From the NCBI RefSeq assembly GCF_003334255.1, contig NZ_QOWU01000035.1: a DNA stretch of 55,376 bases. One strand, written 5' to 3'. The stretch comes from Escherichia coli. Its GTDB lineage: Bacteria > Pseudomonadota > Gammaproteobacteria > Enterobacterales > Enterobacteriaceae. This document shows, piece after piece, positions 43,055 to 43,606 of this stretch. The notes beneath the pieces were generated by a model that was not told the origin of the DNA, did no database searches, and saw nothing but the letters and a program-made list of their open reading frames with translations. How positions within the stretch are numbered: the stretch's first letter is position 1; each line of letters starts with the position of its first letter. The position numbers and the translations under genes were made by a program.

Positions 43055-43606
43055 CTACTTTATCTCATAAACTGGTGTTATCTCAGCGGTTGCAATTTTA
43101 TTGGCATTAAGCATATAACCAACTAACGCTCCGCTGGAATTAGAATCCACAGGAATTTTATCAGTTTTTAGAGCCCATACTTTAAACTGGTAATGATGGG
43201 GTTTATCTCCTTTGGGAGGACATGCTCCACCAAATCCTGCATAACCAAAATCATTTCGGCCTTGAACAGCACCAGTCGGAAGTTTTGTACCATCACGTCT
43301 TCCTGCATCAGCGGGCAAATATGTTACAGTTGCTGGAATATTAGCAACAGTCCAGTGCCACCATCCACTGCCTGTAGGAGCATCTGGATCATACACAGTT
43401 ACGGCAAAGCTTTTGGTGCCTTCAGGAGCACCAGACCAGGTTAATGAGGGCGATGTATTACCACCTTCACACCCAAATCCAGAAAATACATGAGACGTTG
43501 TAAGTTGCTCTCCTGTTTTTATTTCATTACTAGTGACCTGAAATGCTGCGGCCTGCGCAGAAAATGTTATGAATGCCAATACACTTGAAACGATAAGTTT
43601 TTTCAT
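43055..43606 (-). CDS. ybcL: Periplasmic PEBP/RKIP-family protein (YbcL-like)
   Basis: 183-aa ORF with signal peptide MKKLIVSSVLAFITFSAQAAA and phosphatidylethanolamine-binding-protein family signature; same size as the YbcL I recall. Confidence 0.85.
   Translation of the reverse strand: MKKLIVSSVLAFITFSAQAAAFQVTSNEIKTGEQLTTSHVFSGFGCEGGNTSPSLTWSGAPEGTKSFAVTVYDPDAPTGSGWWHWTVANIPATVTYLPADAGRRDGTKLPTGAVQGRNDFGYAGFGGACPPKGDKPHHYQFKVWALKTDKIPVDSNSSGALVGYMLNANKIATAEITPVYEIK

Follow-up and report, generated by a model that had tools for sequence, protein, structure and literature searches.

The window, by which we mean the whole stretch of 55,376 nucleotides of Escherichia coli DNA analysed here, contains on its minus strand an ATG-to-stop ORF of 183 amino acids at 43055–43606. 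We confirmed this ORF as a real gene, ybcL, encoding the periplasmic PEBP-fold protein YbcL. Over its whole extent (residues 1–183 of 183) the translated protein matched NF007330, the NCBIfam equivalog for YbcL, with 401.8 bits against a cut-off of 277; for the YbhB/YbcL family TIGR00481, where the cut-off is 57.75, it reached 183.7 bits. The Pfam domain PBP (PF01161) was found between residues 44 and 180 (3e-42). The closest solved structure was the crystal structure of YbcL from K-12, 1FUX (E = 2e-110), and with approx. 97% identity over 164 residues the protein is predicted to have the three-dimensional fold of PEBP. Hallmarks of the PEBP family are a DPDxP motif, a His following a WW/HW strand and a GxxPPxGxxxHxY motif. 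In the protein encoded in the window the pocket motifs were DPDAP at residues 73–77, H84-W85, and GACPPKGDKPHHY at residues 127–139.

The N-terminus of YbcL showed the features of a Sec (type I) signal peptide, consisting of MKK, a hydrophobic core (residues 4–16, mean Kyte-Doolittle value of 2.25) and AQAAA. From these features the signal peptide was assigned to codons 1–21 (MKKLIVSSVLAFITFSAQAAA; 43544–43606, minus strand), with predicted cleavage after Ala19 or Ala21; the chain in 1FUX begins at residue 20–22. YbcL would accordingly be made with a Sec signal peptide of 19–21 amino acids, be exported to the periplasm and adopt a PEBP/RKIP-type fold there, with the motifs of the ligand pocket conserved. 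A review describes YbcL as periplasmic and as released by lysis (PMC4810123). The first-pass annotation had read the ORF as a PEBP-family protein of YbcL type with a signal peptide, and the matches to NF007330, PF01161 and 1FUX bear this out. Two other readings of the protein were rejected. A lipoprotein was dismissed because the signal peptide contains no Cys and there is no lipobox, and an orthologue of YbhB was dismissed because the protein reached 200 bits, which is under the YbhB equivalog cut-off of 226. YbhB is the cytoplasmic PEBP paralogue of E. coli (1FJJ, 1VI3); it has the PEBP fold and the pocket motifs in common with YbcL (phmmer, E = 2.5e-48), but in contrast to YbcL of the window it carries no signal peptide.

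The next ORF downstream of ybcL follows on this strand after a gap of 9 bp; it encodes 265 amino acids (42248–43045, minus strand) and is annotated as ybcM in identical genomes. Its product matched HTH_18 (3e-16, residues 185–261), and the AraC-family NCBIfam matches lay in the C-terminal 100 residues. By these matches YbcM is predicted to have the C-terminal double helix-turn-helix domain of the AraC/XylS family, and the AraC-family gene that had been noticed earlier beside ybcL is indeed its direct neighbour. The spacing and the common orientation suggest that ybcL heads a ybcL-ybcM operon in the window. Upstream of ybcL, at a distance of 168 bp, emrE was found (43775–44107, minus strand), encoding an SMR multidrug exporter of 110 amino acids (NCBIfam NF042984, 240.5 bits against a cut-off of 226). 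No structured RNA or riboswitch was found near emrE or ybcL when positions 40500–45000 were searched with Rfam at E <= 0.1.

NCBIfam matches and blastn breakpoints placed an IS200/IS605 scar at 41254–42091, comprising an N-terminal fragment of tnpB on the minus strand and tnpA on the plus strand (approx. 41567–42091). The scar cuts yedK at about codon 143 of 222, so that the gene order in the window reads truncated yedK, IS scar, ybcM, ybcL, emrE, fliE, fliF. The same scar is annotated in strain 4848 and in ST131, the latter with the truncated yedK exactly as in the window, and in E24377A tnpB is full-length. For the rest of the window, beyond approx. 12 kb of ybcL, a list of the large ORFs was made; going by their sizes and order, they appear to be the usual chemotaxis, flagellar, ots and ara genes together with neighbouring housekeeping genes.

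YbcM has been studied in K-12. There, 12 ChIP-exo sites were reported for tagged YbcM and the operon was named ybcLM (Gao et al. 2021, PMC8464067). In the dataset of the same study the strongest site lies upstream of ybcL (570015–570048) with a signal/noise of 357 and RNA polymerase bound; the second-strongest site has a signal/noise of 81, and the 11 sites besides the one at ybcL include ucpA, lrhA and csrB (PMC8464067). We took the site coordinates to follow the older MG1655 numbering, because only there does the ucpA site lie upstream of ucpA, and the conversion may err by 1–2 bases. After conversion the K-12 site came to lie between 101 and 68 bp upstream of the start codon of ybcL. Its homologue in the window (43674–43707, minus strand) occupies the same interval, −101 to −68 from the ATG, and is identical to K-12 in 27 of 34 bases. 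The conserved core of this putative YbcM site occurred once in the window, where 0 occurrences were expected by chance; further copies of the core, for example at fliE/fliF, were not found within the window, even when 3 mismatches were allowed. The ChIP-exo experiment was done in K-12, from which the putative site differs in 7 of 34 bases, and 21 of the 265 residues of YbcM differ between the window and K-12; two of these differences, K253N and L259I, fall in the helix-turn-helix region at the C-terminus.

By our own reading of the alignment, a −10-like hexamer, CATAAT, is present at 43660–43665 (minus strand). It is common to the window, UTI89, E24377A and K-12 and abuts the putative YbcM site, and TTGCGC lies 18 nt upstream of it, within that site. 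In a consensus scan of 41900–44900, promoters and terminators were no more frequent than in shuffled sequence, and nothing downstream of ybcM made a convincing terminator; the CATAAT pair was not reported by the scan because TTGCGC matches at only 3 of 6 positions. From this arrangement we infer a candidate ybcL promoter in which the YbcM site covers a weak −35, as at an activator-dependent promoter. YbcM, translated from the ybcL transcript, would then most likely bind the site overlapping the weak −35, approx. 70–100 bp upstream of ybcL, and thereby control its own operon, while it would act on other genes as well.

The adjacent AraC-type gene had been suggested to be the dedicated control of ybcL. 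Control as such is supported by the K-12 ChIP-exo peak upstream of ybcLM, the site of which is conserved here. That the control should be dedicated is contradicted by the placing of ybcM on the same transcript as ybcL, by the 11 other YbcM sites, and by the reported roles of YbcM in stress and in motility and biofilm formation. According to the K-12 study, deleting ybcM raises the sensitivity to H2O2 8-fold (PMC8464067). It has also been published that the ybcM mutant is killed more readily by nalidixic acid and other stresses, and a meeting abstract describes YbcM as a repressor of motility genes and an activator of biofilm genes. We concluded that YbcM does not serve ybcL alone; the published K-12 data support a link between the two, which is not an exclusive one.

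To place the locus among other strains we compared it with 5426 complete E. coli genomes. A 1.7-kb stretch covering ybcM and ybcL was present in 3258 of these, on chromosomes only. The query spanning the emrE-fliE junction was covered in 2618 of the 5426 genomes and the K-12-type copy, that of the prophage DLP12, was found in approx. 673. The position next to fliE is thus the majority location of ybcL in E. coli. The fliE-linked locus was also found in UTI89, E24377A, ST131 and strain 4848. In UTI89 the order is yedK-porin-ybcM-ybcL-emrE-fliE, and YbcL of that strain (WP_001313946.1) is encoded by the same gene at the same site (ybcM-ybcL-emrE beside fliE), with 182 of 183 residues identical, 99.5% nucleotide identity and 240 identical bp upstream. 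The two strains differ beside ybcM, where UTI89 has an intact yedK and the gene of an NmpC-like porin, whereas these are truncated or replaced by the IS200/IS605 scar in the window. The gene, the structure, the regulator and the chromosomal arrangement, which is that of the reference uropathogen UTI89, are all already on record; as a discovery the locus therefore matters little, being a known gene in its usual place.

In K-12, ybcL (b0545, the protein of 1FUX) lies inside the cryptic prophage DLP12 in the order emrE-ylcJ-ybcK-ybcL-ybcM. The K-12 protein is of the same family and length, with 177 of 183 residues identical, and the same ybcL-ybcM pair is present, at a nucleotide identity to the window of 95% for ybcL and 91% for ybcM. 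Approx. 155 bp of upstream DNA, including the YbcM site, are likewise conserved between the two. In K-12 the copy has ren/emrE/ybcK on one side and ybcN on the other and is surrounded by phage genes, which the copy in the window lacks. The first-pass annotation had placed ybcL outside a prophage. This was correct insofar as the annotation of the matching genomes (strain 4848, UTI89, ST131) shows no phage genes for structural proteins, lysis, replication or an integrase within approx. 12 kb on either side. It was correct only superficially for the island itself, which has the appearance of a cargo-only DLP12-like relic in its gene order, its Q fragment, its GC content and its location at the site of PR-G.

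Homology to K-12 ended at 41273 and restarted at 44304. The island between these positions (41274–44303), consisting of the IS scar, a Q remnant, ybcM, ybcL and emrE, stands where K-12 has the 3' end of yedK, yedL and yedN as well as 61 bp from the start of the pseudogene intG. In genomes without the island the homology to the window runs from 44304 onward. The yedK-fliE site is annotated in K-12 as the cryptic prophage PR-G. The GC content of 42092–44450 was 40.3%, compared with 50.5% for the whole window. With blastn on the window and on UTI89, four segments matched DLP12 in the same order at 83–92% identity. In the window, 41933–42031 matched the 3' end of DLP12 quuD (83%), 42041–43761 matched DLP12 ybcM and ybcL with 155 bp upstream (89.8%), and 43766–44183 matched DLP12 emrE (91.6%); UTI89 additionally matched the nmpC region of DLP12 and keeps an NmpC-like porin that is 90% identical to DLP12 NmpC. 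The first of these segments contains a remnant of 90 bp from the 3' end of a Q antiterminator gene, which lies beside ybcM (41938–42027, minus strand) and was identified by tblastn against residues 98–127 of QuuD, the last 30 of that protein (67% identity, E = 7e-9). The window also retains, beside ybcM, a small ORF of DLP12, decayed and with an in-frame stop.

The same genes are found in phages. PHROGs contains families both for YbcL and for YbcM, and YbcM of the window matched phrog_6899 over its full length. The isolated lambdoid phage PhiR68_2 (49.7 kb) carries cI, cro, cII, O, P, ren, emrE, ybcK, ybcL, ybcM, ybcN, ninE, ybcO, rusA, ylcG, Q, porin, S, R, Rz and bor. In the nin-region cargo of PhiR68_2, PhiR34_1 and PhiR70_1, emrE, ybcL and ybcM are followed by Q and the porin, in the order and orientation of the window. 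These phages differ in that they carry the K-12 (Val99) allele of ybcL, ybcK and a full set of phage genes, whereas the window has the cargo and 90 bp of Q only.

These observations suggest that the island is the cargo-only relic of a DLP12-like lambdoid prophage. Since neither att sites nor an integrase that would have belonged to the ancestral prophage were found, and the DLP12 integrase IntD resembled neither the intG fragment of K-12 nor the window, the relic is one that we infer from the gene order and the remnants. The 3-kb low-GC island with ybcLM and emrE would have been left between yedK and fliE after a DLP12-like prophage lost its phage genes, and would have been passed down there in about half of E. 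coli, UTI89 included. If the fliE-linked locus is such a stripped prophage, the presence of the same module in DLP12 and in live lambdoid phages would follow from it. The opposite direction, in which ybcLM and emrE are old core genes native to the chromosome beside fliE that were captured by lambdoid phages, we regard as very unlikely. It would fit the far higher frequency of the fliE-linked copy (2618 genomes) than of the DLP12-type copy (673), the use of one site across several distant lineages, and the lack of att sites and an integrase of the island's own. However, the Q fragment and the decayed small ORF adjoin ybcM in the island and are present as whole genes in phages, and as fragments derive from whole genes, a transfer from the chromosome to the phage is improbable. 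The order and orientation of emrE-ybcL-ybcM-(Q)-porin are moreover those of the nin-Q-porin region of phages, and the GC content lies 10 points under that of the surroundings. Aberrant excision of a prophage picks up DNA flanking the att sites, not DNA of the nin region, which also argues against capture from the chromosome.

The protein of the window was identical to YbcL of strain 4848 and ST131 (WP_001310919.1). Compared with K-12 and with phage PhiR68_2 it showed six differences (K3T, S8T, A60V, A88V, A99V, D149E), and compared with E24377A three, none of them at residue 99. The sole difference from UTI89 was A99T; codon 99 (43310–43312, minus strand) is GCT (Ala) in the window, ACT (Thr) in UTI89 and GTT (Val) in K-12. 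Four positions of the mature protein separate UTI89 from K-12, and at three of these, A60, A88 and D149, the window has the UTI89 state, while at residue 99 it has a third state. A host-interaction role had been proposed earlier from the YbcL of uropathogenic E. coli, with an alignment to the K-12 and UPEC variants as the check. In this alignment the protein was not the K-12 variant, given the six differences including A99V, and it was not the UTI89 variant either, having Ala99 instead of Thr99; it sided with UTI89 at residues 60, 88 and 149.

YbcL of UTI89 was reportedly identified as a suppressor of neutrophil migration by Lau, Loughman and Hunstad in 2012, and the decisive change is said to be named V78T in that work. 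The Thr allele of UTI89 reportedly suppresses neutrophil migration and the Val allele of K-12 is reported to be inactive. We take residue 99 of the precursor to be the published V78T, mature position 78 with a signal peptide of 21 amino acids, because nowhere else do K-12 and UTI89 differ by Val against Thr and because 99 minus 21 equals 78. That a single amino acid change decides the activity of YbcL is also stated in a review (PMC4810123).

The frequency of the alleles was determined with exact 58-mers around codon 99 in the 5426 genomes. The Ala allele was found as the window type in 1112 and as the E24377A type, in which one other base differs, in 1065 genomes; Thr (UTI89) was found in 386 and Val (K-12) in 535. 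Ala99 is thus the majority allele, with at least 2177 of 5426 genomes, and it is not specific to pathogens. Ala is probably also the ancestral state, judging from the codons, because GCT is one step away from both ACT and GTT, while a change from Thr to Val takes two. With high confidence we describe the locus as a ybcL-ybcM operon, most likely under the control of its own product YbcM, located in a probable relic of a DLP12-like prophage and carrying the commonest allele of ybcL, Ala99.

What the Ala99 protein does can be read in two ways. It could be inactive on neutrophils, like that of K-12, and have a periplasmic role for the bacterium itself, within a YbcM stress and lifestyle regulon covering tolerance to oxidative and quinolone stress and the switch from motility to biofilm. 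We would give this reading close to an even chance. The top YbcM site is the one at ybcL, and the ybcM deletion has the increased sensitivity to H2O2 (8-fold) and to nalidixic acid mentioned above; the repression of motility and activation of biofilm genes by YbcM, as given in the meeting abstract, points the same way. A transposon insertion in ybcL moderately lowers motility according to a fitness database, as cited in a publication (PMC8793217), and the spread of the allele over all kinds of E. coli suits a general function. Yet the stress and regulatory phenotypes cited are those of ybcM rather than of ybcL, and bacterial PEBPs are not known to have a biochemical activity or a ligand. A bacterial role and an effect on the host are moreover not mutually exclusive.

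Alternatively, Ala99 YbcL could be an active host-interaction factor like that of UTI89, which would be released by lysis, act via bladder epithelial cells and lower the transepithelial migration of neutrophils. We hold this to be a tentative reading, somewhat more doubtful than credible. The protein is identical to UTI89 YbcL in 182 of 183 residues, with the UTI89 state at 60, 88 and 149, and the locus is the one of UTI89, down to the 240 identical bp upstream. It is also identical to YbcL of ST131, an extraintestinal pathogenic lineage, and ybcL mRNA has been detected in a clinical ESBL-producing UPEC isolate (allele not given), at a 3-fold higher level in filamentous cells. Against this stands that the one residue that differs is the Thr/Val position of UTI89 and K-12, reportedly the one that decides activity (Lau 2012). 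Ala lacks the hydroxyl group of Thr; as a small residue it could nevertheless be permissive, if it is the bulk of Val that inactivates the K-12 protein. The allele is further found in non-pathogenic and animal strains of other lineages, for example in the E24377A type (1065 genomes), and is thus not specific to a pathotype. No assay of the Ala99 allele was found in the searchable literature.

Two further ideas, which we consider unlikely, concern the allele and the chromosomal position. Residue 99 may be a three-state switch, in which the putatively ancestral Ala, carried by approx. two thirds of the ybcL-positive E. coli including ST131, would behave unlike both the Thr allele of UTI89-type strains and the Val allele of DLP12-type phages. 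Separately, YbcM of the relic, a reported repressor of motility genes that is fixed beside the fliE and fliF operons, might have been co-opted into flagellar control. If the three-state switch were true, suppression of neutrophils would be either a recent gain by a single base in a minority of B2 strains, ST131 not among them, or a trait of the majority of E. coli that the phage-borne copy has lost. The frequencies at codon 99 also bear on statements made for UPEC as a whole, as Thr99, the "UPEC-type" allele that was tested, is a minority allele (386 of 5426 genomes), and the common one, which is also that of ST131, is Ala99.

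The truncated yedK gene (40836-41273) ended early, at approximately residue 143 of 222, where it was interrupted by an IS200/IS605 remnant (41254-42091) consisting of tnpA and an N-terminal piece of tnpB. YedK is an SOS-response-associated peptidase that guards abasic sites. The identical IS scar was detected in ST131 and in strain 4848, while yedK was whole in K-12, UTI89 and E24377A. YedK function is therefore probably missing in the lineages carrying the scar.

In the uropathogenic reference strain UTI89 a gene for an NmpC-like porin (30010-31092 of the UTI89 locus, annotated as ompC) was situated between yedK and ybcM, and was 90% identical to NmpC of DLP12. 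The window lacked this porin gene and had the IS scar in its place. Two degraded pieces of phage genes adjoined ybcM in the window, both on the minus strand. One (41938-42027) comprised the final 30 codons of a decayed Q antiterminator gene and was 67% identical to QuuD, the Q antiterminator of DLP12; the other (42073-42132) was a decayed copy, with an in-frame stop, of a small ORF whose counterpart adjoins ybcM in DLP12.

The genes emrE-ybcK-ybcL-ybcM were also found in the nin region of isolated lambdoid phages, namely PhiR68_2 (PV340576; 4423-8359), PV340559 and PV340577, and the YbcL allele on these phages was of the K-12 type (Val99). Live phages thus keep the ybcLM operon mobile today, together with a gene for multidrug efflux. 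As for emrE in the window, the 170-aa ORF with a TTG start at 43775-44287, taken from a mechanical ORF list, was rejected; the true emrE was the 110-aa ORF with its ATG at 44107, which agreed with the annotation and matched the full-length EmrE model.

The adjoining stretch 44304-44521, common to genomes with and without the island, corresponded to part of 'intG', a K-12 pseudogene that overlaps the fliE 3' end and belongs to the cryptic prophage PR-G. Its translation matched a PHROG of unknown function (1.4e-10), and no similarity was found between it and the DLP12 integrase.

According to a meeting abstract, YbcM represses motility genes. In the window the distance between ybcM (42248-43045) and the divergent promoters of fliE and fliF (genes at 44451-46638) was approx. 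1.4 kb, and no further copy of the core of the ybcL-type YbcM site was found elsewhere in the window.

The flagellin gene (33656-34705, minus strand) was short, encoding 349 aa as compared to 585 aa for the annotated fliC of UTI89. The best matches of the whole region were small genomes (4.6-4.8 Mb) from human and livestock sources, whereas the ybcL island alone was 99.9% identical to that of ST131. The short flagellin and the small-genome matches, set against the ST131-like island, hint at a mosaic history of the region.
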